A stretch of DNA of 64,000 bases from an uncultured Gammaproteobacteria bacterium (GTDB taxonomy: Bacteria > Patescibacteriota > Patescibacteriia > Magasanikbacterales > GWA2-37-8): NCBI GenBank assembly GCA_964641245.1, contig CAZXML010000004.1, positions 5,418-69,417 of the forward strand, read 5' to 3'. The notes under the pieces were generated by a model that saw nothing but the letters and a program-made list of their open reading frames with translations, ran no database searches and had not been told where the DNA came from. Shown in pieces: positions 3,647-54,386 of this stretch. A program made the translations under genes and the position numbers. Position 1 is the first letter of the stretch, and every line of letters begins with the position of its first letter.

Positions 3647-4357
3647 ATGTTAACCTACTTTTGGACGAGTTATCTATATCAGCCGGTATTTAACGCGCTA
3701 ATTTGGATTTACCTTAATATCGCCGAGCGTAATTTGGGCTGGTCCGTGGTTTGGCTCACTATTTTTTTACGTATCATTCTTTTACCGCTCACTTTAATTT
3801 CCGAACGCGATGCCGTTAGGCAAGAAAACGTGGAAGAAGAAGCCCGCCATGCGGCCAAAGCGTTTAAGAACGATGCCGTGGCGCAAAAAGAAGAAATCAG
3901 AAAAATAATGAAGAAAAACCGGGTTTCTCCATGGGCCAAGGTCATGTCCATTGGTCTTCAGTTATTGGTCTTAATACTTTTATACCAGGTTTTCGTCCGG
4001 GGTATAACCGGAGACCGGGTAATCAAGTTTTTATATCTGTGGATAGATTTTCCCGGTAAAATGAACGTTGATTTTTACGGTTTCAACATCGGCAACCGCC
4101 ACGACAGTCTTTGGGCCGGAGCAACCGCATTGTATCTTTTCTTTTCAATTTATTTAGGAGAAGGCCCTAGCCGTAAAAAAGACCAGTCCAGAACCACCTT
4201 CATGTTCCTTTTCCCGCTTTTTACCTTTTTGGCCCTGTGGCTATTACCCATGGTAAAATCCCTCTTCATTTTGACTTCCATGATATTTTCTGATACTATT
4301 ACTTTAATCAGAATGATGATTTTCCCCAAGAAAAAAGAGGTTTTAAAAAAGAAATAA
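3647..4357 (+). CDS. yidC: YidC/Oxa1-family membrane protein insertase (short form), tentative
   Basis: Pattern IFLRIILLPLT ... charged linker ... SPWAKVMSIGLQLLVLILLYQ parallels the conserved YidC core (LLPLT ... NPLGGCLPLLIQMPILIALYQ). Multiple transmembrane segments. Confidence 0.45.
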   Translation: MLTYFWTSYLYQPVFNALIWIYLNIAERNLGWSVVWLTIFLRIILLPLTLISERDAVRQENVEEEARHAAKAFKNDAVAQKEEIRKIMKKNRVSPWAKVMSIGLQLLVLILLYQVFVRGITGDRVIKFLYLWIDFPGKMNVDFYGFNIGNRHDSLWAGATALYLFFSIYLGEGPSRKKDQSRTTFMFLFPLFTFLALWLLPMVKSLFILTSMIFSDTITLIRMMIFPKKKEVLKKK

Positions 4358-4362
4358 TCATT

Positions 4363-4424
4363 GTCATCCTGAACTTGTTTCAGGATCTACACGATAAAGA
4401 TGCTGAAATAAATTCAGCATGACA
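4363..4424. repeat. Family A palindromic element (hairpin pair TGTCATCCTGAACTTGTTTCAGGATC ... GATGCTGAAATAAATTCAGCATGACA)
   Basis: Two inverted hairpin units separated by about 10 bp. Termini are TGTCAT/ATGACA. Same family as 12889, 30926, 37734, 39325 and 40899. Confidence 0.75.
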
Positions 4425-4440
4425 GCTAAATTTAAATTCT

Positions 4441-5007
4441 ATGTCCGGAGATTCCTTCGACAAATTAATGTATTCATTTGTAATGGATGATGTTTTAAAG
4501 GGGATTTTTATAAGCGTTCCTCCCGGATACGTGGCTTGTGTTTACGATTTGGGCAGAGGCGTATTAAAAAAGGTTTTAACACCCGGTCTTCATTTAAAAA
4601 TTCCGTTTTGGCAAAAAGCCAAATTATTCAATACGCAAACCTTGGAATACAGTATTTCCCGCCAATTTAATCCGGAACACGAAAAAGCCTTGGGCGACAT
4701 TCCAATTGCCGCCGGCACCAAAGACGGCCAGCGCTGTGGGGTGGAAGGAACAATTTTATTGCGTCTGGATGTGCATCAGGTGCCGTCTATCTGGCAAACA
4801 ATCGGGGAAGACTTTGTGGCCAAAATTGTGCGCCCCACTATCCGCAGCCGCATACGCATGGTATTCTCCAAATTTGATTACCAAGACATAGTTGGCGCCA
4901 AAAGAGACGCGGTAGAAATGGAATTAAAGAATGAGCTGGAAAGAATTTTCTATGCCCGCGGAATCTATGTAGAAAATGTTTTGTTAAGCGAAATCGCCAA
5001 AATTTAA
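4441..5007 (+). CDS. SPFH/band-7 (prohibitin/HflC-like) domain protein, short
   Basis: PGLHLKIPFWQKA and downstream SPFH-core pattern. It lacks an N-terminal transmembrane segment and the C-terminal extension of typical family members. Confidence 0.55.
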   Translation: MSGDSFDKLMYSFVMDDVLKGIFISVPPGYVACVYDLGRGVLKKVLTPGLHLKIPFWQKAKLFNTQTLEYSISRQFNPEHEKALGDIPIAAGTKDGQRCGVEGTILLRLDVHQVPSIWQTIGEDFVAKIVRPTIRSRIRMVFSKFDYQDIVGAKRDAVEMELKNELERIFYARGIYVENVLLSEIAKI

Positions 5008-5025
5008 CAGGCACAGTACAAGACA

Positions 5026-5051
5026 AAAAGCCCCTCTTGACGGGGCTTTTT
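5026..5051 (+). terminator. Rho-independent terminator
   Basis: AAAAGCCCC TCTTGAC GGGGCTTTTT hairpin plus T-run, directly after the SPFH gene. Confidence 0.7.
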
Positions 5052-5063
5052 AAGTGTGGTATA

Positions 5064-5090
5064 TTATCACTCGTAAGGTTGGAGTGATAA
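5064..5090. promoter_or_regulatory. CIRCE-like HrcA operator (TTATCACTC-N9-GAGTGATAA)
   Basis: Perfect 9-bp inverted repeat with a 9-bp spacer, 10 bp upstream of hrcA. It differs from the canonical TTAGCACTC-N9-GAGTGCTAA at one position per half-site. Confidence 0.7.
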
Positions 5091-5099
5091 TAACACCCT

Positions 5100-5780
5100 A
5101 TGAATAGTCGTGGTGAAAAAATCTTAAATTTAGTCATTGAAAGCTATATTGCCAACGCCGAACCCGTGGGTTCCAAGTTTTTGGTTTCTGTGGGTGGTTT
5201 GGATTTGGGCGAAGCTACTATTCGCAATGAATTGCGTGCGCTAGAAGAAGAGGGCTTTTTAACTCATCCGCACACTTCGGCCGGAAGAATTCCCACGGAA
5301 AAAGGCTATAAACACTATATTAAAAATCTAAATTTAGCCAAAAGCCACATCTCCAAAAACGACGGTAAAATCCTATCAAATTCCTTGGAAAAAGACACCG
5401 ACCACGAATCATCTTTTAAAAATATGGCCAAAACAATGGTGGAGTTATCCAACGAAACCGTGGTCATTGCTTTTTCACCGGAAAATATATACTATACCGG
5501 TTTATCCAATCTTTTTAACAAGCCGGAATTTACCGAACTAAGTTTGGTAGCCGGCATCTCCGAAATGTTTGACCACTGCGAAGAAAGTCTGGAAGGTTTT
5601 TTTGATAAAGTAGACGTTAACCCGCAATATTTTATCGGCGACGAACATCCTTTCGGCGAAATGCTTAGCGTGGTGTCCATGCGCTTTGGAAAAGACGGAT
5701 TGGTGGCGCTATTGGGACCGAAACGAATGGATTACAAATACAATTTTGGTTTAATGAAAAAATTGTTAGAATTAATTTAA
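5100..5780 (+). CDS. hrcA: Heat-inducible transcription repressor HrcA (short form)
   Basis: N-terminal wHTH EPVGSKFLV...ATIRNELRALEEEGFLTHPHTSAGRIPTEKGY. Sits upstream of grpE. Confidence 0.85.
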   Translation: MNSRGEKILNLVIESYIANAEPVGSKFLVSVGGLDLGEATIRNELRALEEEGFLTHPHTSAGRIPTEKGYKHYIKNLNLAKSHISKNDGKILSNSLEKDTDHESSFKNMAKTMVELSNETVVIAFSPENIYYTGLSNLFNKPEFTELSLVAGISEMFDHCEESLEGFFDKVDVNPQYFIGDEHPFGEMLSVVSMRFGKDGLVALLGPKRMDYKYNFGLMKKLLELI

Positions 5781-5833
5781 CCTCCCCATCAATTCTCTCC
5801 CCTTTTAGGGGAGAGACAGAGAGAGGGGTATCG
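5781..5833. repeat. Family F palindromic repeat (CTCTCCCCTTTTAGGGGAGAGACAGAGAGAGGGGTAT)
   Basis: Single copy between hrcA and grpE. Same family as the clusters at 6684-6834, 7214-7394, 28648-28761 and 57836-57880. Confidence 0.8.
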
Positions 5834-5863
5834 TAAGTAATACTTTAATAATACAAAATATTT

Positions 5864-6343
5864 ATGTCAGACGAAGAAATAAAAGAAGAAAATTTAGAAA
5901 ATTCTGAACCTGTTAAATCCGAAGCCGAAGAATACAAAGCCAATTGGCAACGGGCTTTGGCGGATTACCGGAATCTGCAAAAAGAAACCATGGCCATGCG
6001 GTCGCAGTGGGCCAAAATGAGTGAAGAAAATATTTTGCAGAATTTTATTCCGGTTTATGAGTACCTGAAATTAGCAATTAACAACGAACAACTAGCAAAT
6101 GATAAAAACCCTTGGTTGGAAGGTGTTAGACACGTTATACGTCAGTTTGCAGGGGTTTTGAAATCTTACGGGGTAGAAGAAATAAAAACAGTGGGCGAAA
6201 AGTTTGACCCCCATTGGCACGAAGCGATTGGTGAAGAAGAAGCCGAAGACCGCGAGGCCGGGTTCATCCTAAAAGAAGTGGAAAGCGGATATAAAATGGG
6301 TGACAAAGTAATAAAACCAGCCAGGGTAATAATTTCTAAATAA
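5864..6343 (+). CDS. grpE: Nucleotide exchange factor GrpE
   Basis: EYKANWQRALADYRNLQKE and the GrpE C-terminal beta domain. Position is between hrcA and dnaK. Confidence 0.85.
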   Translation: MSDEEIKEENLENSEPVKSEAEEYKANWQRALADYRNLQKETMAMRSQWAKMSEENILQNFIPVYEYLKLAINNEQLANDKNPWLEGVRHVIRQFAGVLKSYGVEEIKTVGEKFDPHWHEAIGEEEAEDREAGFILKEVESGYKMGDKVIKPARVIISK

Positions 6344-6348
6344 TAAGT

Positions 6349-6672
6349 ATGGCACCAGAAAAAGGCGAGGAAGATTTTTTTGGGCAAATAGAACCCAAAG
6401 AAAGCAGGAAAGCAGGCAGAGAAATAGCCGTTAATGTTCCGCTGTTTTCAACGGATAGAACACAAAGTTTTAAAGAATATAGCCGGGTGATAACGGAAGC
6501 GGAAAAAATGGCTCAAAATGCCGATTTAATACAAATGGTTAACGATAAAAAATTGCACTTTACCGTATTATATCGTCTTAGCGATGAGTATGAAATTAAC
6601 GGCCGGCCAGACCCAAAAAATCTAAAAGAAAAAGTTAAAACCGCCATTTTACAGCTAATGTCGCGGATGTAA
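6349..6672 (+). CDS. Hypothetical protein
   Basis: 107-aa ORF immediately after grpE. No recognisable motif. Confidence 0.35.
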   Translation: MAPEKGEEDFFGQIEPKESRKAGREIAVNVPLFSTDRTQSFKEYSRVITEAEKMAQNADLIQMVNDKKLHFTVLYRLSDEYEINGRPDPKNLKEKVKTAILQLMSRM

Positions 6673-6683
6673 AAAAATAATTT

Positions 6684-6834
6684 CCTCTTTCGTCCCTCCC
6701 CCTTTTAGGGGGAGGACAGAGGAAGGGGTATCTCGGCGGGTTCTCTCCCTATTAGGGGAGAGATAAAGAGAGGGGTATTTCACTCAATCACTCTCTCCCC
6801 TTTTAGGGGAGAGACAGAGAGATGGGTATTCGGT
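6684..6834. repeat. Family F palindromic repeats, three tandem copies
   Basis: Three ~45-50 bp units, each with core CCCCTTTTAGGGG/CCCTATTAGGGG and tail AGAGAGGGGTAT. They abut the start of the DUF559 gene. Confidence 0.8.
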
Positions 6835-6841
6835 AATCGCG

Positions 6842-7231
6842 TTGAGTATGATCAAAAAATACATCTACAAAAATGCCCACAAACTAAAAGACATACGCCA
6901 ATCACTCCGCGCCAACCCCACCAAGGCCGAAGAGATTCTCTGGCAACACTTAAGACGCAATCAATTAGGTTTTAAATTTCGCAGACAATTCAGCATAAAT
7001 AGTGTAGTCGTGGATTTTTGTAGCGAGCAATTAAAGCTGGTTATAGAAATCGACGGCTGGACGCATGATTTTGAGAAAACACAATTAAAGGATGCACGGA
7101 AACAGAAAATGTTAGAGGAGAATGGGTATAAAGTTGTGCGGTATACAAATGAACAGGTTTATGGGGATATCGGAGTGTTGGTTGGTGGTATAAAGAAAAT
7201 TTGCGACAGCAGGGCTTCCTTCCCCTTTTAG
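6842..7231 (+). CDS. DUF559 endonuclease-domain protein (Vsr-like fold family)
   Basis: AEEILWQHLRRNQLGFKFRRQFSINSVVVDFCSEQLKLVIEIDGWTHD...GYKVVRYTNEQV matches the DUF559 signature. The last seven codons lie inside a family F repeat. Confidence 0.7.
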   Translation: MSMIKKYIYKNAHKLKDIRQSLRANPTKAEEILWQHLRRNQLGFKFRRQFSINSVVVDFCSEQLKLVIEIDGWTHDFEKTQLKDARKQKMLEENGYKVVRYTNEQVYGDIGVLVGGIKKICDSRASFPF

Positions 7232-7394
7232 GGGAAGGACAGAGGATGGGGTATCTGTAGAACAATGTTTACGAACGAATACCCCCACCCTGCCCTCCCC
7301 CTAAAAGGGGGAGGAACGAGACAACGACAAATAGTAGTCAGTACGCTCAATCGCTCCCGCCCCTTTTAGGGGAGGGATAGAGGGAGGGGTATTT
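7214..7394. repeat. Family F palindromic repeats, three copies (middle copy inverted)
   Basis: GCTTCCTTCCCCTTTTAGGGGAAGG..., then ATACCCCCACCCTGCCCTCCCCCTAAAAGGGGGAGGAACGA, then CTCCCGCCCCTTTTAGGGGAGGGATAGAGGGAGGGGTAT. The middle unit is near-identical to 28727-28761. Confidence 0.8.
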
Positions 7395-7420
7395 GTTCGT
7401 TTGAGATAAAAAAATAAATT

Positions 7421-7918
7421 ATGAATGTAGAAATTAGAGAATATATAGAAAGTGATTTTCAAGAATTAGTAAATTGTATAAATAGTTTTGAGGATTACTA
7501 TGCTTTTTTGAGTGGAAATCAAAGAAAAAGTCGCTCGCCAGATTTTGGCGAAAAATTTACACCATTCCTTATTCAAAAAACAAAAAGTCAAAATGGTCAG
7601 ATATTGGTGGCGAAGCAAGGCAGTACCATAATTGGTTTTGCCGCAGGGATTATATTAGAGCAGGACGCGTTTGATAGGGTTGCAAATGGAGAGAATAAAT
7701 ATGGCGTGGTACAAGAGTTGTTTGTGAAAGAGGATTATAGAAATAATAGTATTGGAAAACAGTTACTTGAAAAATTAGAAAATCATTTTAAAGAGCAAGA
7801 TTGTACTGCAATTAAAATAGAAATAGATTATATAAATAAAGAGGTCGAACATTTTTATCAAAAAGTCGGATATAAACCAAGAAGCACAATCGTATATAAA
7901 TCAATAATAAAACAATAA
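7421..7918 (+). CDS. GNAT family N-acetyltransferase
   Basis: Acetyl-CoA-binding segment [23 protein letters not shown]. Size is 165 aa. Confidence 0.7.
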
Positions 7919-7919
7919 T

Positions 7920-9830
7920 ATGAGTAAAGTTCTCGGAATCGACCTCGGTACTACAAACAGTTGCATGGCAGTTATCGAAGGCGGACAGCCAAAGGTGATG
8001 GAAAACAAAGAAGGCGCGCGCACCACTCCTTCTATTGTGGCTATTTCTAAAACCGGTGAGCGGTTGGTGGGGCAATTGGCCAAACGTCAATCCATTACCA
8101 ATTCGCAAAATACTTTGTATTCCATCAAACGTTTAATCGGCCGACGCTGGGAAGACCAAGAAGTTCAGCGCGACTTGGCTCTTTTACCGTACAAGATAGT
8201 AAAGAGCGGTGATGGAGTAAAAATAGAAATGTCCGGCAAGGAATATACTCCGCAGGAAATTTCGGCTATGATTTTGGGAAAAATGAAAGCGGATGCCGAA
8301 GAAAAATTGGGTGAAAAAATTACCGAAGCGGTTATTACCGTGCCAGCTTATTTTGATGATGCTCAACGCCAGGCCACCAAAGACGCGGGCGCGATTGCCG
8401 GATTAAATGTTTTGCGTATTATCAACGAACCTACGGCCGCGGCTTTGGCTTATGGTTTTGATAAAAAGAAAGATCAAAAAATTGCGGTGTACGATTTGGG
8501 CGGCGGGACTTTTGATATTTCTATTTTGGAAGTTAGCGCCGACACCGTGCAGGTTTTGTCCACTAACGGCGATACTCATTTGGGTGGAGATGACTTTGAT
8601 AATGTTATTATAAATTGGATTAACGAAGAGTTTAAAAGAGACAGCGGGATAGACTTAAGCAAGGATCTTTTGTCTAAACAACGCATAAAAGAGGCTGCCG
8701 AGAAGGCCAAGATAGAGTTATCCACAGCCCAGGAAACCGAAATTAACCAGCCGTTTATCACCTCCGATTCCACCGGGCCAAAACACTTAGTAATGAAATT
8801 AACGAGAGCCAAACTGGAAGAATTGGTAGGGGAGTTGGTGGACAAAACCATGGCTCCGGTGCGCAAAGCTTTGGAAGATGCCAAACTTAAGGCCGGAGAT
8901 TTAAACGAAGTGGTAATGGTTGGGGGTATGACTCGCATGCCTTTGGTTCTGCAAACAGTAGAAAAGTTTTTTGGTAAAAAACCAAATATCAGTGTTAACC
9001 CGGACGAAGTGGTGGCGGTTGGCGCGGCGGTGCAGGCAGGCGTCTTAAAAGGCGAAGTGCACGATGTACTTTTGCTGGATGTTATTCCTTTGTCTTTCGG
9101 TTTAGAAACATTAGGCGGAGTGATGACCAAGTTAATTGAACGCAACACCACGATCCCGACTTCCAAGAGCCAGGTATTTTCTACCGCGGCCGATAATCAG
9201 CCGGCTGTAGAAATTAACGTGCTTCAAGGTGAACGTCCGATGGCCACAGACAATAAAAATTTGGGCAGATTTATTCTGGACGGTATTCCACCGGCTCCGC
9301 GCGGAGTTCCGCAGGTGGAAGTTACATTTGATATAGATGCCAACGGAATTTTAAACGTCAAGGCAAAAGATAAAGCCACCAACAAAGAACAATCTATCCG
9401 CATTGAAGCAAGTACCGGTTTGTCTAAAGAAGAAGTGGAGAAAATGAAAAAAGACGCCGAGACTCATGCGGTTGAAGACAAGCAAAAACAAGAATTAATT
9501 GAAATAAAAAATATCGCCGACACCATGGCTTACACCACCGAAAAAATGATGAAGGAAGTGGAAGAGAAAAAAGTTAATGTCAGCGATGAGGAAAAAAATA
9601 AAGTAAATGAGGCGTTGAAAGCTCTCAAAGAAGTAAAAGACAAAGACGATGTGGAGGCTATTAAAAAGGCTTCGGAAGAATTATCCAAAGTTGCTCAAGT
9701 AATCGGCGCTAAGATGTACGAACAAGCAAAAGCCGCTGAAGCCAAACCTGGAGCCGAAGAACAAAAAGCCGGCGAATCTGGCGCTCCGGAAAATCCAATT
9801 GAAGGGGAAGTGGTTGATGATAAAAAATAA
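7920..9830 (+). CDS. dnaK: Molecular chaperone DnaK (Hsp70)
   Basis: [26 protein letters not shown] and [12 protein letters not shown] motifs. Full-length at 636 aa. Confidence 0.95.
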
Positions 9831-9853
9831 TCTTAATTATCTTAATTATATTT

Positions 9854-10285
9854 ATGTCGGAAATTGAAAATAAAGAAGCGGCCCTGCAAAATTTTAGAGC
9901 GGAAATAAAAAAGATTAAGGAAAATTTTCCGTCACTTTTTGCTGTAGAAAATGTAGACGAGCTTCAAGCGGAAGAAGGCGAAGTTTGGGAAGAATTTAAA
10001 TTGTTATTCAAAAAAATTGAGACGGAGTTGTCGAAATATGATATGCAAAATAAAGACGTTCCGGCCGGTTTAATAAACGAAATAAAAAAGATGGCCATAA
10101 CTGTTGGCGGGAATCTATCAATGATAACAAATCCTAATAGAACGGAATTTTTGGCGTGGATAAATAATCGTTTGGCGGTTTTATCTATTAATTTACAGTT
10201 TCTCAAAAACAGCAAAGCAAACGAATCAACGTTAATGAAAAGCAGGGAAAGTTTGTTGGTGGAAAAGAAAGGTTTATTATTATAA
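9854..10285 (+). CDS. Hypothetical protein (between dnaK and dnaJ)
   Basis: 143-aa ORF with no recognisable motif. Confidence 0.35.
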   Translation: MSEIENKEAALQNFRAEIKKIKENFPSLFAVENVDELQAEEGEVWEEFKLLFKKIETELSKYDMQNKDVPAGLINEIKKMAITVGGNLSMITNPNRTEFLAWINNRLAVLSINLQFLKNSKANESTLMKSRESLLVEKKGLLL

Positions 10286-10292
10286 GCAAACC

Positions 10293-11369
10293 ATGTCCAA
10301 AGACTATTACAAAATCCTTGGTATAGATAAAAACGCTTCGGCGGAGGATGTTAAAAAGGCTTTTAAAAAAGCGGCCATGCAACATCATCCGGACCGGCCG
10401 GGCGGAAATGAGGCTAAATTTAAGGAGGTAAATGAAGCTCACCAGGTTTTAAGCGATGCGGAAAAACGCAAGCGCTATGATTCATATGGTTCGGATTTTG
10501 AACAGCAGGGCGGATTTGGCGGGGGAATGAATTGGGAAGATGTGATGCGCCAGGCTCGGGGCCAGGGTGGTCAGAGTCAGGATTTTGGTTTCGATTTTGG
10601 AGACTTGGGTGATTTATTCGGAGGCGGACGAAACCGCGGTCCAGCCAGAGGCAGAGATATTCAGGTTGATGTGGAAATTGAATTTAAGGAAGCGGCTTTT
10701 GGCGTAGAAAGAGAAATGTCTTTACGCAAACAAAGCAAATGTGATGTTTGTGGCGGTACGGGCGGGGAGCCGGGTACAAAAATGGAAACCTGCGCCACCT
10801 GTAAAGGTCAGGGAAAAGTGGTGCAAATGCAGCGGACTATTTTGGGTTCCATGCAAACGGTAAACACCTGTTCTGATTGCTATGGCGCCGGGAAAAAACC
10901 CGCCAAAAAATGCAAGCATTGCGACGGCAGCGGTGTAGCCACAAAAACTTCCAGTATAAAAATAAAAATTCCGGCCGGTATTGATAACGACCAGTCCATC
11001 AGACTGGAAGGCCACGGCGAGGCGGCCCCGCACGGTGGTGGCAGCGGTGATTTGTATGTGCGCGTGCACGTTAAACCCTTAAAAGGTTTTGCCCGCTCCG
11101 GTTATGATGTTTACACGGAAAAAGAAATTAGCTATCCGCAGGCCGTGCTTGGCGATCACATCGAAGTGGAAACTCTGGATGGAGAAGTAAAATTGGTTGT
11201 TCCCGAAGGTACGGAATCCGGCCAGCAAATCCGGATAAAAGGCAGAGGCACAAAATATCTGGACCGGAATGCCCGCGGCGATCATTATGTAAAAATAAAA
11301 ATCAGAGTTCCTAAAAAACTAGACAGAGAGACAAGAAAAAAATTGGAAGAACTCAAAAAGGAACTCTAA
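10293..11369 (+). CDS. dnaJ: Molecular chaperone DnaJ
   Basis: J-domain DYYKILGIDKNAS...HPDR, a G/F-rich linker and four CxxCxGxG zinc-finger repeats. Confidence 0.9.
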   Translation: MSKDYYKILGIDKNASAEDVKKAFKKAAMQHHPDRPGGNEAKFKEVNEAHQVLSDAEKRKRYDSYGSDFEQQGGFGGGMNWEDVMRQARGQGGQSQDFGFDFGDLGDLFGGGRNRGPARGRDIQVDVEIEFKEAAFGVEREMSLRKQSKCDVCGGTGGEPGTKMETCATCKGQGKVVQMQRTILGSMQTVNTCSDCYGAGKKPAKKCKHCDGSGVATKTSSIKIKIPAGIDNDQSIRLEGHGEAAPHGGGSGDLYVRVHVKPLKGFARSGYDVYTEKEISYPQAVLGDHIEVETLDGEVKLVVPEGTESGQQIRIKGRGTKYLDRNARGDHYVKIKIRVPKKLDRETRKKLEELKKEL

Positions 11370-49027: not shown

Positions 49028-49411
49028 ATGAATAGTACTGTTTATGTAATGTTGGAGAATCTGGATGTTTATAAATTAGCGCGTGATTATTCCAGAAGAG
49101 GCTGGGAAATGTACGAAAAATTTGATTGGCAGCAAAGAAAAGTTATTGGTGATCAGGCTATTACAAGTATTGATTCGGTTGGCGCAAACATCGCGGAAGG
49201 CTATGGCAGATTCCACTACTTGGATAAAAATAAGTTTTATTACATTGCCCGCGGTTCATTATTCGAATCAAAGCATTGGTTGGAATTGCTAAAAGAAAGA
49301 AAACTTGTATCCGAAGAGAAATATGCGGAAATGCTGGAAGTACATAAGAATATATTGTTAAAACTTAATTTATTAATTAAATCACAATTAAATCAAAAAA
49401 GTATTTCTTAA
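49028..49411 (+). CDS. Four-helix-bundle protein (TIGR02436-type; Avd-like fold)
   Basis: LDVYKLARDY...SVGANIAEGYGRF...FYYIARGSLFESKHWLELL matches the signature of this family, which includes DGR accessory Avd proteins. Confidence 0.75.
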   Translation: MNSTVYVMLENLDVYKLARDYSRRGWEMYEKFDWQQRKVIGDQAITSIDSVGANIAEGYGRFHYLDKNKFYYIARGSLFESKHWLELLKERKLVSEEKYAEMLEVHKNILLKLNLLIKSQLNQKSIS

Positions 49412-49498: not shown

Positions 49499-49873
49499 AT
49501 GAAATCAAAAGCATATTGGGTGGTAATATTTCTGGTCATGTTTGGAACCAGCGTACTTTTTGGCCTGCTGTATTTTCAAACCAACAAAGAATTGCAAGGC
49601 ACAAAAATAGCGCTGTCTACCCAGCGTTATAACGCCAAGTACCTGGATTTTCTAAAAATGTTTATCAGACTGGTTATAAAATCCGACAAAGAAGTGGATT
49701 TTGAAACGCGTTTGAAATTGGAAAACAACATCCGCGAGCTTTCCGCCGAATATAATGACCCGGAAATTTTGCTCCAATGGCAAAAGTTTGTGGCCTCTAC
49801 CAACGAATTCGAAGCGCAAAAAAACGTCAAAGATTTACTGGCCATGCTGGTGGATAAGACATATCTTAAATAA
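49499..49873 (+). CDS. Hypothetical membrane-anchored protein
   Basis: N-terminal transmembrane helix and a helical C-terminus. Confidence 0.4.
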   Translation: MKSKAYWVVIFLVMFGTSVLFGLLYFQTNKELQGTKIALSTQRYNAKYLDFLKMFIRLVIKSDKEVDFETRLKLENNIRELSAEYNDPEILLQWQKFVASTNEFEAQKNVKDLLAMLVDKTYLK

Positions 49874-49962
49874 ATTTGATATTAATACACAGCTACTGGG
49901 GATAAGTCTGTTTGACTAAAGAAAAAACATGAAATTTGTGGTATAATAATGGAGACAGTTAT

Positions 49963-52900
49963 ATGCTAACCTTAGGAAAAAGAAAACTTTTTAAAATTTT
50001 AGAAATATCCTCTATTTTTGTCGGTGTCATCATGGCGCTTTATTATTTTTATCCGGTTTTTGCCGCTCCTCCTACTACTCCATACGCGCCCGGCGAAACC
50101 ACCGATCCCGCTTGTACTCCCGGCAGTACTAATTGTACAGTTTACCCGCCTCTCACCACCACCCTCACCACTTCCACGGCCATTACTATGGCCACATCTG
50201 CTTTACGGTTTGCTTACGACTCTACAAATTATACCGCCCTCACAGTGGCCGCAGATGGCGCGCTCACGGTCAGTTCCACCGGCGGTGTCACCACTACTTT
50301 TGCCAATAAAATTTCGGTTTTAGCCAATTCATATTTCTCCACTATTTCCAGTGGCACCTGGAATGGTAGTGTTATTGGCGTTGCTTATGGCGGCACCAAC
50401 AGTTCCACCATTGGCCCAGCCGGCTCTGTCGCATATTCTAACGCCAGCAGTTACTTGTTTACCGCCGCCGGTACAGCCGGACAAATTTTGCAGGCCAATG
50501 GCACCGGCGCTCCTACTTGGATAAATACCAGCACCATGGGATTTGTTAATCTGCAGGGCGTTACGTCCGGTACGCAACAAACTGGAAATTTTAATATTAG
50601 CGGCACTGGCCTTATCGGCGCCGCTCTGGGCATCAACACCACTAGCCCCATCGCAAGTTTATCAGTGCAAGGAACGGGAACAAAAAACCCTTTCACTATC
50701 GTTTCTTCAACCAATGGGTCAATGTTGACTGTTTTGACGAACGGGAATGTTGGGATTGGCACTTCCACCCCTTCTGAAAAACTTCAGGTGGTGGGAAATA
50801 TTTCGAATGTGATTGATTCTAACACCACTTTTTCATCTTCCATCGCCACTGTAGGCACAAGTCCTTATGATATCTTTGTTTCCGGCCGCTACGCCTACGT
50901 GACAAATTATGGCGGAGGTACCCTTTCAATCGTAGATGTAACCGACCCTTTAAGACCTTCAGAAATCTCAACTGTTAGTGTAGGCACAAGCCCTTATTCG
51001 GTTTATGTCTCCGGTCACTATGCTTATACAGCAAATTATAACGCTGGTACTATTTCCGTCGTTGATGTTTCTAATCACGCTGTTCCTAAAATAGCTGCTA
51101 CTTTTAGTATATCTAAACCTGCGGGAATTTATGTCTCCGGTCGCTATGCTTATGTGACTAATTTTGATTCCAGTACCATTTCAGTTGTAGATGTATCCAA
51201 CCCCCTTAGCCTTGCTTTTGTTGCGAGCACTACCGCAGGAACGAACCCTCTTCAGATTTATGTGCAAGGAAATTATGCGTATGTGGCTAATAGGGGTAGC
51301 AGTTACATCTCAATAATAGATATTTCTAATCCTTCTGCCCCTCGCAACGTTGCCAATCCGGTTGTGGGTATATCCCCTCACGATATACACGTTTCTGGCC
51401 GTTATGCTTATGTTTCAGTATTGGAAAATGATAATTTTGCAGTTGTAGATATTTCTAATCCAAACGTTCCTGTGGTGGTAACTAGCACCCCTGCAAGCAG
51501 TGGACTGGGCGGTTATGCTTTGTACGTTTCTGGCCGTTACGCTTATGTGACCAGGAGCGCTTCAAGCACTTTAGCTGTTATAGATATTTCTAATTCATCC
51601 ACCCCCGTTTTAGCCGCCACAATTCCTGTATCCCCAGGCCCTGGCGGTGTTTATGTTTCCGGTCGCTACGCCTATGTGACAAATTATAGCGGCAGCAGTA
51701 TTACCGTCATCGACATCTCCGGCACCGAGGTCACTTCACTCATCGCCCACAGCGCCGAGGTGGGGAATCTGCAATCCCGAAACGACATTTTTGCCGAAGG
51801 AAATATAATGGCCGGCACTTCGCTGTCGGTTGGTGCTGGAGGTATTATGTCCCAAGGCGCATTGTCTGTCTTTGCTTCTTCTACCGATGCCACATCTTCT
51901 ATTTTCAATGTTTCATCCGCCCAGACATCAAATATATTTAATGTTTTTGCGAATGGAAAAATTGGTATTGGTAGTTCCACTCCGTCAACACTATTGGTCG
52001 TAAATGGAACTTCTACGATGAACGGATTACAGATTTTAAATAGGGGTTCAGCGGCTGTTCCTGCTCTGGCTATTGGCACAGCTACAGATGGTATTTATCA
52101 GCGAACCGCTACCACTTTGAACATTACCACCAATGGCGCGATTACAGCCGAATTTTATAACGGTTCAATATCAACAAACGACTTAAAAGTAAGTGCGATA
52201 TACAATGGAAGTACTGCGGGAAGCAGTGGTGGAGGTGTCATTGATTTAACCACAGTAGGATTAACTCTGGGGATTGATGGGAACGCTGCAATTTTGAATA
52301 TTAAAAATAATGTGGTCGGCATAAATACTACCACCATAAACTCCACCCTCACAGTGCAGGGCACGGATAGCATCAATCCATTTTCTATCCTTTCCTCCAC
52401 CACAGCTTCTCTGCTCACCGTTCTCACCAACGGCAATATTGGCGTCAACTCATCTAGTCCTATTGCAACTTTGGCAGTACAAGGAAATTACGGAACAAAT
52501 CCTTTTTCTATAAACTCCTCAACTGGAGCAACTATGTTAAACGTTCAAACTAATGGAACAGTTAATGTGGGAATGGGAGCTCTTTCTATTAGACACAACA
52601 ACGCTGTTACTAACAACGCAGTTTTTACTGCTGGTTCATCTGGTAGTGGGTACTTCAATGTTTGTAATGACGGCTGGTGTACTGGATTTGGAGGTGACGC
52701 GCCTGTTGCAGTCACCACTGGGTTTCAGCTTTATGGCGCGGCTCCCATCATTTTTGAGGGGAGTACTGACAATTCATTTGAAACTCGTTTGAATGTTGTC
52801 GAACCTACAGCCGACCGAACTGTTCTACTTCAAAATTTAAGCGGGACGGTTGTTATCACTGAATTAACTACCAATAATGTCGGCCTCGGCACCACCACCC

Positions 52901-53940
52901 CGCAAGCAAAACTAACTATCCAAAGCACCAGCTCCAATCCTTTTTCCATCGTAACTTCAACTGCAGGGGCCGAATCTATGTTCATTGTTTTGACGAATGG
53001 GAATGTTGGTATCGGAAGTTCCACCCCTTCCTATAACTTTGTTTCTACTGGTACGGCTGCTTTAGCAAATCTCCCCTCCGGCGCTCTTTCTGATATTCTT
53101 GTTTGCTGGACTACAGACGGACAATTAACCAGGCAAGCCACCAACTGCACTGTTTCATCTGCTCGTTTCAAAGAAAATATCCAATCTCTATCATCGGATA
53201 AACTAATGGAAAAAGTTCAAAAACTAAGAGTGGTTAGTTTTGATTACAAGTCTAATGGACAACCGAGCGAGGGTTTTATCGCCGAAGAAATTGCCCTAAT
53301 AGACCCAATGCTGGTTGTTTATACCGATAGTTACACTCCGGAAGATCTGGCTTTTGAACAGGCTAATTATCCAAGTTCAACCTTATATAAAGACGGTAAA
53401 ATATTAATTCCGCAAACAGTTGATTATTCCCGAATCTCGGTTCTTCTTACCGGCGCATTGCAAGATATAGATGCCAGATTGACCGCTTATGTTGCTTCAG
53501 CAGAGTTAATGTCTTCGGTATTCAGTATTGATGTAGCGGATATTAGCAACGACATGCCAAACTTTGCCACTGTAATTTTGGACAAATTTACTTTGGCTGT
53601 AAAAAATAGCTTAAGAAAATTGGGCCTGCTGATAAAAGATGGCGTGGCCATGGTAAAAGAATTGGTGGCGGATAAAGTGAAGACTAACCAGTTGTGCGTC
53701 GGCCAGACTTGTATAAACGAACAGCAATTGCAAGATATTTTGAGTAAAACTCAAACTCAAGCCACTCCGGTACCTGTCATCCCGAGCGAGGTCGTAGCCG
53801 ACGAGGGATTTTTGTCCACCACAACACAGGATTCTAACGTACCTGACACAACTCCAGCAACTGTCTCTGAAGAAACTCTAAGCTCTACGCTTCCAACCGT
53901 TCCCGATGAATCAGCTGATATAGTCACTTCAACTCCATAG
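49963..53940 (+). CDS. Giant surface protein: LVIVD-repeat beta-propeller, phage-tail-fibre-like G(N)(V/I)GIG(T/S)S(T/S)P repeats, C-terminal S74-type intramolecular chaperone domain
   Basis: TATAAT box at 49942, GGAGA Shine-Dalgarno sequence, then ATG at 49963. About eight SGRYAYVTNY...ISVVDVSNP units. Five LTVLTNGNVGIGTSTPS-like units. C-terminal SSARFKENIQSLSSDKLMEKVQKLRVVSFDYK matches the endosialidase-chaperone consensus. Confidence 0.6.
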   Translation: MLTLGKRKLFKILEISSIFVGVIMALYYFYPVFAAPPTTPYAPGETTDPACTPGSTNCTVYPPLTTTLTTSTAITMATSALRFAYDSTNYTALTVAADGALTVSSTGGVTTTFANKISVLANSYFSTISSGTWNGSVIGVAYGGTNSSTIGPAGSVAYSNASSYLFTAAGTAGQILQANGTGAPTWINTSTMGFVNLQGVTSGTQQTGNFNISGTGLIGAALGINTTSPIASLSVQGTGTKNPFTIVSSTNGSMLTVLTNGNVGIGTSTPSEKLQVVGNISNVIDSNTTFSSSIATVGTSPYDIFVSGRYAYVTNYGGGTLSIVDVTDPLRPSEISTVSVGTSPYSVYVSGHYAYTANYNAGTISVVDVSNHAVPKIAATFSISKPAGIYVSGRYAYVTNFDSSTISVVDVSNPLSLAFVASTTAGTNPLQIYVQGNYAYVANRGSSYISIIDISNPSAPRNVANPVVGISPHDIHVSGRYAYVSVLENDNFAVVDISNPNVPVVVTSTPASSGLGGYALYVSGRYAYVTRSASSTLAVIDISNSSTPVLAATIPVSPGPGGVYVSGRYAYVTNYSGSSITVIDISGTEVTSLIAHSAEVGNLQSRNDIFAEGNIMAGTSLSVGAGGIMSQGALSVFASSTDATSSIFNVSSAQTSNIFNVFANGKIGIGSSTPSTLLVVNGTSTMNGLQILNRGSAAVPALAIGTATDGIYQRTATTLNITTNGAITAEFYNGSISTNDLKVSAIYNGSTAGSSGGGVIDLTTVGLTLGIDGNAAILNIKNNVVGINTTTINSTLTVQGTDSINPFSILSSTTASLLTVLTNGNIGVNSSSPIATLAVQGNYGTNPFSINSSTGATMLNVQTNGTVNVGMGALSIRHNNAVTNNAVFTAGSSGSGYFNVCNDGWCTGFGGDAPVAVTTGFQLYGAAPIIFEGSTDNSFETRLNVVEPTADRTVLLQNLSGTVVITELTTNNVGLGTTTPQAKLTIQSTSSNPFSIVTSTAGAESMFIVLTNGNVGIGSSTPSYNFVSTGTAALANLPSGALSDILVCWTTDGQLTRQATNCTVSSARFKENIQSLSSDKLMEKVQKLRVVSFDYKSNGQPSEGFIAEEIALIDPMLVVYTDSYTPEDLAFEQANYPSSTLYKDGKILIPQTVDYSRISVLLTGALQDIDARLTAYVASAELMSSVFSIDVADISNDMPNFATVILDKFTLAVKNSLRKLGLLIKDGVAMVKELVADKVKTNQLCVGQTCINEQQLQDILSKTQTQATPVPVIPSEVVADEGFLSTTTQDSNVPDTTPATVSEETLSSTLPTVPDESADIVTSTP

Positions 53941-54020: not shown

Positions 54021-54386
54021 ATGGAAAAAGAGAAAGAGCCAACCATACAAGATGTCCTTGACGCCATGCATGCTTTTGCGGGCAATACGCAAGAGAGATT
54101 TGAGAAAATAGACGAGAGATTTGAGAATATAGATGAAAGATTTGATAAAATAGACGAGAGATTTGATAATCTGGAAAAAAATCTGCGTTTAGAAATCGGC
54201 AAAGCAAGAGATGAGGCGTTCGTGCATGCAGACAGAAAATCGGAAGAAGTAATTGTGGAGGTGGGTAAAATAATAAATAGACGCGCCGAACATGAAAATA
54301 AATTTAAGCATGAATTAGTTTCCGTCATGAAACGTAATTCTTTGTTAGGCGCCAAAGAGCTGAAACATCTGGAGCGGGCGATCTAA
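54021..54386 (+). CDS. Hypothetical coiled-coil protein with tandem ERFxxID heptad repeats
   Basis: Four 21-bp DNA repeats at 54097-54180 encode ERFEKIDERFENIDERFDKIDERFDNL. Confidence 0.45.
   Translation: MEKEKEPTIQDVLDAMHAFAGNTQERFEKIDERFENIDERFDKIDERFDNLEKNLRLEIGKARDEAFVHADRKSEEVIVEVGKIINRRAEHENKFKHELVSVMKRNSLLGAKELKHLERAI

Follow-up and report, generated by a model that had tools for sequence, protein, structure and literature searches.

A chromosomal gene of a Magasanikbacteria-like patescibacterium for a putative exported surface fibre built of phage tail-fibre modules

Introduction

By what means ultrasmall Patescibacteria locate other cells and stay attached to them is for the most part unknown, and the type IV pilus is the only host-binding organelle named for them in the literature found (bioRxiv 10.1101/2024.11.25.624915). 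A 64,000-nucleotide stretch of contig CAZXML010000004.1 (assembly GCA_964641245.1), hereafter the window, carries a large gene whose product resembles a phage tail fibre preceded by an export signal. Does such a cell make a fibre of its own, of what parts is it built, and what might it serve? An earlier note, made from the letters of the sequence, had described the product as a surface protein of 1326 residues with an N-terminal signal or anchor, about eight LVIVD propeller repeats, then five copies of a tail-fibre shaft motif and, at its end, a self-cleaving S74 chaperone, and had proposed that it is a host-attachment adhesin or a domesticated phage fibre.

We favour, with moderate confidence, the reading that the gene belongs to the chromosome of a Magasanikbacteria-like patescibacterium and encodes a Sec-exported surface fibre built of phage tail-fibre modules. 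The assignments of the propeller, the shaft and the S74 domain are firm. By analogy with characterized relatives of these modules, the fibre is probably trimeric and self-maturing, with three lateral propellers, and is encoded at a fast-evolving chromosomal locus. A role in adhesion or host recognition is plausible, by analogy with phage receptor-binding proteins and in view of a pattern of conserved ends and variable middle described below. The locus is a testable second candidate for the means by which these bacteria find and hold other cells.

Domain organization of the fibre protein

The S74 domain was recovered by Pfam. Peptidase_S74 (PF13884) matches residues 1065-1118 with 33.4 bits (E 5.5e-8; gathering cut-off 22), over profile positions 1-57 of 58. 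The domain starts S1065-S-A-R1068-F-K1070-E-N-I, an S-x4-K arrangement with a conserved Arg (Arg1068) between the putative nucleophile, Ser1065 (53155-53157), and the putative general base, Lys1070 (53170-53172). In an alignment of 19 homologous C-termini, the Ser, the Lys and one Ala of an IAEE motif are the only invariant residues, so that the conserved Ser/Lys dyad expected of such a domain is indeed in place. The profile of this alignment matches, in the PDB, the long tail fibre of phage S16 (6f45, E 3.8e-15) and MYRF (7dc3, E 2.9e-12), as well as a putative tail fibre (8jov), the L-shaped fibre of T5 (8hqz) and the GA-1 neck appendage (3gud). These solved chaperone domains were reached by the alignment profile only and not by single-sequence search; phmmer runs against the PDB with the C-terminal 396 residues, the shaft or the N-terminal module returned nothing useful. 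An AlphaFold2 (AF2) model of residues 1020-1270 has a predicted local distance difference test score (pLDDT) above 90 for residues 1079-1179; Foldseek again ranks solved chaperone domains first among its matches: 7dc3 (probability 1.0), 3gud and 3gw6. The S74 domain that had been proposed thus stands. It does lie in the C-terminal part of the protein, but it does not end it: the core stops at about residue 1180, and behind it come another conserved module and a tail rich in Thr, Ser and Pro (Table 1).

In the S74-type family, Ser and Lys form the catalytic dyad, and cleavage needs folding and trimerisation (PMC3742443). In MYRF, the S74-type domain forms a trimer and severs the chain immediately N-terminal to the catalytic Ser, leaving an N-terminal fragment 1-577 and a C-terminal fragment that starts at S578 (PMC3742443). 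By this analogy, the scissile bond of the fibre is predicted to be Val1064|Ser1065, and the cut would free a fragment of 261 residues; trimerisation and self-cleavage of the fibre are themselves inferred from the behaviour of the family.

Upstream of the chaperone lies a distal shaft whose repeats follow the pattern ..NGNVGIGTSTP..L.VQG...NPF.I.SS... Its tail-fibre character is borne out by two PHROGs tail-fibre families, phrog_9942 (E 2.3e-13, residues 812-1173) and phrog_1980 (E 1.2e-9), which together span residues 751-1179. The motif xxTNGNVGIGTSTP is repeated, as had been claimed, but the count of five has to be replaced by four copies at the DNA level and about seven loose ones at the protein level, read by eye, of which a protein-level pattern search returned four. 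Since one copy (residue ~259) precedes the propeller, the propeller is best described as an insertion within the shaft; the order propeller-then-shaft given earlier holds for most of the shaft and fails for this copy. The distal shaft contains the pair Cys901/906 and, ahead of the predicted cleavage site, a loop between Cys1048 and Cys1062.

A segment of the shaft, residues 919-965 (52717-52857; FQLYGAAPIIFEGSTDNSFETRLNVVEPTADRTVLLQNLSGTVV), is 60% identical to part of a 'baseplate wedge initiator' of Pelagibacter phage HTVC008M. The segment looks like a short motif common to fibre and baseplate proteins.

The LVIVD repeats proved genuine, the Pfam family (PF08309) matching in seven stretches with an E of 9.1e-33 and 111.8 bits (cut-off 20.2), and the NCBIfam YVTN beta-propeller repeat (TIGR02276) scoring 43.3 bits (cut-off 27.85). 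The number of G[RHN]YAY blades is seven and not about eight. In the AF2 model, which has 28 strands and a pLDDT mostly above 90, the seven blades close into what is predicted to be a single 7-bladed propeller. Among PDB structures, its fold is matched best by 1l0q, in which the YVTN propeller belongs to an archaeal surface-layer (S-layer) protein (E 3e-14, 29% identity, root-mean-square deviation 2.4 A). The linker that follows is 76-84% identical to those of the orthologues P0002, P0004 and P0005 and near-invariant in an alignment of homologues; modelled as a monomer, it has a pLDDT below 50.

The N-terminus consists of a basic n-region (KRK..K), a hydrophobic segment and a site, VFA|AP, that signal peptidase might cut. 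In a Kyte-Doolittle scan of the whole protein, only the windows starting at residues 8-18 exceed 1.6; this single, N-terminal hydrophobic segment agrees with the signal or anchor proposed earlier. The module behind it starts YAPGETTDPaCtPGsTNC (Cys51/Cys58) and includes, besides a stretch rich in Thr, the first of the shaft repeats. The motif and its Cys pair recur behind the leader in 12 homologues, while the module matched no Pfam family and, by phmmer, no PDB sequence. The eight Cys of the fibre form four local pairs, which fits an extracytoplasmic protein.

Table 1. Coordinates of the fibre gene, its parts and two adjoining genes in the window
Feature	Position	Strand	Basis
Fibre gene, 1325 residues plus stop	49963..53940	+	Open reading frame list; identical protein P0001 in JGI metagenome
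Residues 1-35: Sec signal peptide or N-terminal anchor	49963..50067	+	Kyte-Doolittle scan; leader conserved in 12 homologues
Residues 36-290: conserved N-terminal module	50068..50832	+	Identity windows against syntenic orthologues
Residues 291-586: seven LVIVD/YVTN blades, modelled as one 7-bladed beta-propeller	50833..51720	+	Pfam, AF2, Foldseek
Residues 587-640: conserved post-propeller linker (DISGTEVTSLIAHSAEVGNLQSRNDIFAEGNIMAGTSLSVGAGGIMSQGALSV)	51721..51882	+	Orthologue identity, alignment
Residues 641-1064: distal shaft, tail-fibre repeats of ~41 residues	51883..53154	+	PHROG families, DNA repeat family
Residues 1065-1180: Peptidase_S74 intramolecular chaperone core	53155..53502	+	Pfam, profile, AF2/Foldseek
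Residues 1195-1262: C-terminal module, Cys1245/Cys1250 (..LDKFTLAVKNSLRKLGLLIKDG..LCVGQTCINEQQLQDIL)	53545..53748	+	Orthologue identity, phmmer
Residues 1263-1325: acidic Thr/Ser/Pro/Val-rich low-complexity tail	53749..53937	+	Composition
Extended -10 TGgTATAAT (49939-49947; TATAAT at 49942-49947) and GGAGA Shine-Dalgarno sequence (49951-49955)	49939..49955	+	Sequence reading
753-residue syntenic neighbour: signal peptide, C-terminal transmembrane helix	46760..49021	+	Open reading frame list, Pfam, tblastn
124-residue neighbour directly upstream: N-terminal transmembrane helix, no family match	49499..49873	+	Open reading frame list, Pfam

A divergent gene at a conserved chromosomal position

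A Pfam scan covered the ten genes flanking the fibre gene and 20 other large open reading frames of the window. It returned housekeeping or envelope functions, such as a DEAD helicase, glutamate dehydrogenase, thymidine kinase, SecA, DnaK/DnaJ, MurJ, LepA, RecJ, CTP synthase, peptidases and glycosyltransferases. Phage genes, for which the earlier note had proposed to look, were absent from these 30 frames. A JGI metagenome contig of 43 kb encodes an identical protein (P0001) among the same neighbours, and the gene order is common to three related Magasanikbacteria-like genomes (L006, L007 and L008/L009), one of them named Candidatus Magasanikbacteria. It runs DEAD helicase, (glutamate dehydrogenase), hypothetical protein, thymidine kinase, CarboxypepD_reg membrane protein, (IVP/Avd-like protein), small transmembrane protein, fibre, (Laminin_G_3 protein), small protein, SecA. 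The Laminin_G_3 protein, of about 700 residues, lies behind the fibre in L006-L008 and is absent from the window. The fibre gene is a stable, syntenic chromosomal gene and not a prophage remnant.

Most flanking proteins are 68-89% identical between the window and the three syntenic loci, the exceptions being a hypothetical protein of 278 residues (22-45%), the IVP-like protein and the 753-residue membrane protein (61-70%). The fibre itself is 42-55% identical to two of its syntenic orthologues over part of its length, and only its first 118 residues align with the third (75%). Taken in windows of 50 residues, positions 1-150 retain 50-84% identity to the syntenic orthologues, P0013 included. 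At the other end, the C-terminal module is 72-80% identical over residues 1201-1250 of the window protein. By these alignments, the fibre combines conserved ends with a variable middle.

The difference extends to the chaperone. The syntenic orthologues P0004, P0005 and P0013 are without S74 and carry, before the C-terminal module, a domain of about 190 residues with the sequence TTLDIAETYP. In an alignment of 24 domains of this type, the D and the E of the LD.AE.YP motif are invariant, and Pfam Peptidase_G2 matches nine of them (best E 4e-6). The alignment profile matches the phi29 pre-neck appendage protein gp12 (6qz9, 3gqh, 3suc), including its isolated autochaperone, which starts DFAEYFE. 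No such Peptidase_G2, gp12-type domain with its LD.AE.Y motif is present in the window protein. In P0002, the start of an S74 domain is joined to the beta part of a gp12-type domain, and in P0013 a pectate-lyase-like beta-helix (Pect-lyase_RHGA_epim) stands in place of the propeller. On this comparison, the locus behaves like that of a phage receptor-binding protein, with ends that are conserved, a middle that is exchanged and self-cleaving chaperone cassettes that can replace one another. Two unrelated phage chaperone domains, both of self-cleaving types, serve interchangeably in exported proteins of cells.

The C-terminal module, which has no Pfam match, was found by phmmer in 219 of 1.84 billion representatives of 50%-identity clusters, always close to the C-terminus. 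Ninety-seven of these representatives have enough sequence upstream of it; according to custom hidden Markov models, which make the counts approximate, 73 have a gp12-type domain directly upstream, 14 an S74 domain and 14 neither. Tails similar to that of the fibre, which is composed of 21% Thr, 14% Ser, 12% Pro and 12% Val, follow the module in other proteins (median 90 residues).

Kinship with phage fibres and other known proteins

The S74 chaperones of K1F/endoNF (3gw6), T5 pb1 (8hqz), S16 (6f45) and GA-1 (3gud) share the S-x4-K dyad and helix of the window protein. They likewise form the C-terminal domain behind a repetitive fibre, where they are expected to nucleate the trimer and then to excise themselves. 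Unlike these phage fibres, the window protein is encoded at a cellular housekeeping locus, begins with an export signal where they have a virion-attachment domain and carries about 145 residues (module plus tail) behind the chaperone, and its cleavage is predicted. Compared with a phage tail fibre feature by feature, it has the homology of the shaft and the C-terminus but neither the location in a tail module nor the baseplate-attachment N-terminus, its own N-terminus being a signal or anchor and a module specific to the Candidate Phyla Radiation.

With tblastn, INPHARED phages yielded short, weak matches only, including a tail fibre of Synechococcus phage S-B28, and a scan of IMG/VR for close relatives of the whole fibre found nothing. 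A profile scan of IMG/VR with the propeller-linker alignment hit 23 viral contigs. One of these, L017 (IMGVR_UViG_3300027861_000450), carries a tail module of baseplate hub, two wedge subunits, fibre, endolysin and holin. Its fibre, of myovirus type (4149-10976; 2275 residues), has a tail-fibre N-terminus (phrog_3100), two LVIVD propellers, each trailed by a linker of the kind found in the window protein (read by eye), and a C-terminal S74 domain. The two proteins are thus alike in that a repetitive fibre with a C-terminal S74 domain has propellers, each with its linker, set into it. They differ in that the phage fibre belongs to a baseplate-fibre-endolysin-holin module, has a tail-fibre N-terminus and two propellers, and contains YadA-head-like repeats. 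Given this tail module, a propeller inserted in a fibre with an S74 end is a genuine phage tail-fibre design, and the identity of 26-38% between the two proteins implies no recent transfer. The proposal of a domesticated phage fibre is reasonable as regards origin, although transfer may have run in either direction; the gene as it stands is chromosomal and syntenic.

LVIVD propellers occur on the 22 other IMG/VR contigs as well; on one of them, L012, the propeller gene adjoins that of a virion structural protein.

Three other known proteins help to place the fibre. MYRF (7dc3), the best fold match of the S74 model, is also a non-viral protein that reuses the phage ICA domain; it differs in being a eukaryotic membrane-bound transcription factor whose cleavage frees a DNA-binding trimer, whereas the product of the window gene is a predicted extracellular fibre. 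The phi29 gp12 autochaperone (Peptidase_G2) has in P0004, P0005 and P0013 the position and presumed role that S74 has in the window protein. The surface-layer protein of Methanosarcina mazei (1l0q), an exported surface protein as the fibre is predicted to be, shares with it the repeat family and the number of seven blades; in the archaeal S-layer protein, PKD domains come after the propeller, while in the window protein the propeller is inserted in a tail-fibre shaft with S74.

The architecture is not rare: the fibre is a member of a class already in the databases and uncharacterised. Among the best 120 homologues, 118 have a propeller, 23 have S74 and 35 have a gp12-type domain; where S74 is present it lies C-terminal to the last propeller or abuts it (P0071, P0095), and the full-length members begin with signal-like N-termini. 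The 23 members with both propeller and S74 are mostly from Patescibacteria, and the named ones come from several patescibacterial lineages, Babeliales and Flavobacteriales. Relatives from Candidatus Magasanikbacteria, Vogelbacteria, Pacebacteria, Babeliales and Flavobacteriales (for example P0066, P0025, P0072, P0029 and P0095) resemble the window protein in combining LVIVD with S74, in their signal-like N-termini and in their cellular contexts. They differ in having one to four propellers and other N-terminal modules, and most are without the C-terminal module. Other LVIVD and S74 homologues sit among cellular genes too, and several homologues go by the NCBI name 'tail fiber domain-containing protein'. 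Searches with the C-terminal 226 or the N-terminal 275 residues listed few, mostly short proteins and not the long homologues. A scan of genome contigs gave one true relative, a fragment from a metagenome-assembled genome of Patescibacteria (82% identity over residues 1-198), and otherwise two remote propellers. A literature search found no study of such LVIVD/S74 fibre proteins in Patescibacteria.

Because the class is already catalogued, though uncharacterised, the novelty of the window gene is limited, and the gain for annotation is modest, the domain combination being widespread in databases under a generic name. Its interest is comparative and lies in the fixed locus, the interchangeable S74 and gp12-type cassettes, the common C-terminal module and the phage counterpart.

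A model for export, folding and maturation

The domain order suggests how such a fibre might be made. The N-terminal signal or anchor would take the unfolded chain through Sec, an export that the four Cys pairs support. Outside the cell, the S74 domain would gather three chains and nucleate the folding of the shaft from its C-terminal end without ATP, and an ATP-independent intramolecular chaperone suits extracellular folding. Each chain carries one propeller between segments of the shaft, so that a trimer would bear three lateral lobes, followed by a conserved neck. Once the trimer has folded, Ser1065 and Lys1070 would cut the predicted bond, and the Cys1048-Cys1062 loop would close the new C-terminal tip. 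Attachment to the envelope would fall to the first 150 or so residues, which are conserved, and the binding of a ligand, carried by another cell or some other surface, to the variable propeller, shaft and tip. As candidates for keeping the mature fibre on the cell, the conserved N-terminal module may act in concert with the 753- and 124-residue membrane proteins encoded upstream.

Several points weigh against this reading. The conserved C-terminal module and tail lie on the very fragment that cleavage should discard, which the model leaves unexplained. The sequence-level match to Peptidase_S74 is modest, and the residue that follows the nucleophile is Ser where Asp is commoner, SS being found in about half of the homologues. 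Oligomerisation and cleavage are predictions from family analogy. If the signal peptide is cleaved, the fibre has no known anchor on the cell. We know of no established ligand for LVIVD propellers, and both the episymbiotic lifestyle of the lineage and a ligand of this fibre are putative.

A wider idea, which we put forward tentatively and hold to be possible at best, is that such fibres are cell-encoded counterparts of phage receptor-binding proteins, that is, Sec-exported, self-maturing trimers that recognise partner or host cells. Their specificity would be reshuffled at a fixed locus by swapping a propeller or beta-helix payload and S74 or gp12-type cassettes between the conserved N-terminus and the C-terminal module.

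Alternative readings

The protein might instead be a structural envelope component of the S-layer type, one that builds or decorates the cell's own surface layer and does not recognise other cells. In structure, the propeller is matched best by that of an archaeal surface-layer protein, the gene stands beside that of a large exported, membrane-anchored protein and near secA, and similar proteins are numerous in Patescibacteria. Structural layers, however, are usually conserved, whereas the fibre has diverged much further than the proteins encoded around it, and its middle and chaperone cassettes are swapped among close relatives, as is usual for determinants of specificity. Neither the occurrence of the gene as a single copy nor the absence of a lattice domain for self-assembly speaks for this reading, and we regard it as unlikely.

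Less probable still, and in our judgement quite doubtful, is a surface-bound or secreted fibre that binds or degrades glycans, a cellular tailspike acting on the polysaccharide of a prey, a host or the environment. It draws on the beta-helix that replaces the propeller in the syntenic P0013, on S74 and gp12-type chaperones being characteristic of both the spikes and the fibres of phages, and on the Laminin_G_3 protein encoded behind the fibre in relatives. That gene is absent from the window, though, and Pfam and NCBIfam returned no catalytic domain for the window protein, only sub-threshold similarity of lactonase or NosZ type in the propeller.

The exported-fibre reading also has to be set against a phage structural gene, the tail fibre of a prophage, of its remnant or of a tailocin, for which the tail-fibre homology along the shaft and the C-terminus and the same architecture in L017 would speak. 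We consider this very improbable and reject it: the scanned frames held only housekeeping and envelope genes, with no phage gene and no baseplate, tail or lysis neighbours; the position between thymidine kinase and SecA is kept in three other genomes; the N-terminus is an export signal and not a baseplate-attachment domain; and other homologues with LVIVD and S74 lie in cellular contexts, the phage fibre being only 26-38% identical.

Diversity-generating retroelements often target fibre or adhesin proteins, and an upstream gene (49028-49411) matches 23S_rRNA_IVP and, through its L008 counterpart, also bAvd, but that the fibre is such a variable target is scarcely credible and was rejected, there being no reverse transcriptase among the scanned frames, no template/variable repeat pair in 40-64 kb beyond the internal blade and shaft repeats, no C-type-lectin domain in the fibre, and no IVP gene in L006 and L007.

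Gene start and neighbouring genes

The open reading frame begins with ATG at 49963 and encodes 1325 residues plus the stop codon, one fewer than had been stated. An alternative in-frame TTG at 49936 would add nine residues; the ATG is preferred because the closest relative, P0002 (MLSLQKRKLFKILE...), begins at the equivalent ATG. Both the TATAAT box and the GGAGA sequence that had been called canonical are indeed present 5' of this ATG (Table 1), but they cannot both serve one mRNA in the textbook manner: the extended -10 ends only 15 nucleotides before the ATG, and the expected transcription start, about 7 nucleotides after it, falls inside GGAGA. A transcript from this -10 would begin in or just after the Shine-Dalgarno sequence, so either the leader is very short or another promoter lies upstream. 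No -35 is found at a spacing of 16-18 nucleotides, for which reason the promoter scan did not list the box; a TTGACT lies 24 nucleotides upstream.

The 753-residue neighbour has aWSxxiGWInF-type repeats and a sub-threshold CarboxypepD_reg domain, and occupies the same position in L006, L007 and L008. CarboxypepD_reg proteins also flank an LVIVD and S74 homologue, P0019 (L005). The 753-residue protein is a possible envelope partner of the fibre. The 124-residue protein encoded directly upstream is 68-75% identical in L006-L008, again in the same position. Two genes upstream of the fibre, the gene with the 23S_rRNA_IVP match encodes a four-helix-bundle protein of 127 residues.

On the other side, at 54021-54386, lies a gene for a protein of 121 residues, with a tandem repeat of 21 nucleotides (7 residues: ERFEKID/ERFENID/ERFDKID/ERFDNLE) and, by tblastn, no counterpart in L006-L008. 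The GC content of the interval 50001-52000 is 46.8%, and its GC and AT skews are both negative, unlike most of the window. This raised GC content and skew probably stem from the Thr/Ser/Gly/Ala-rich composition of the fibre and not from a foreign origin.

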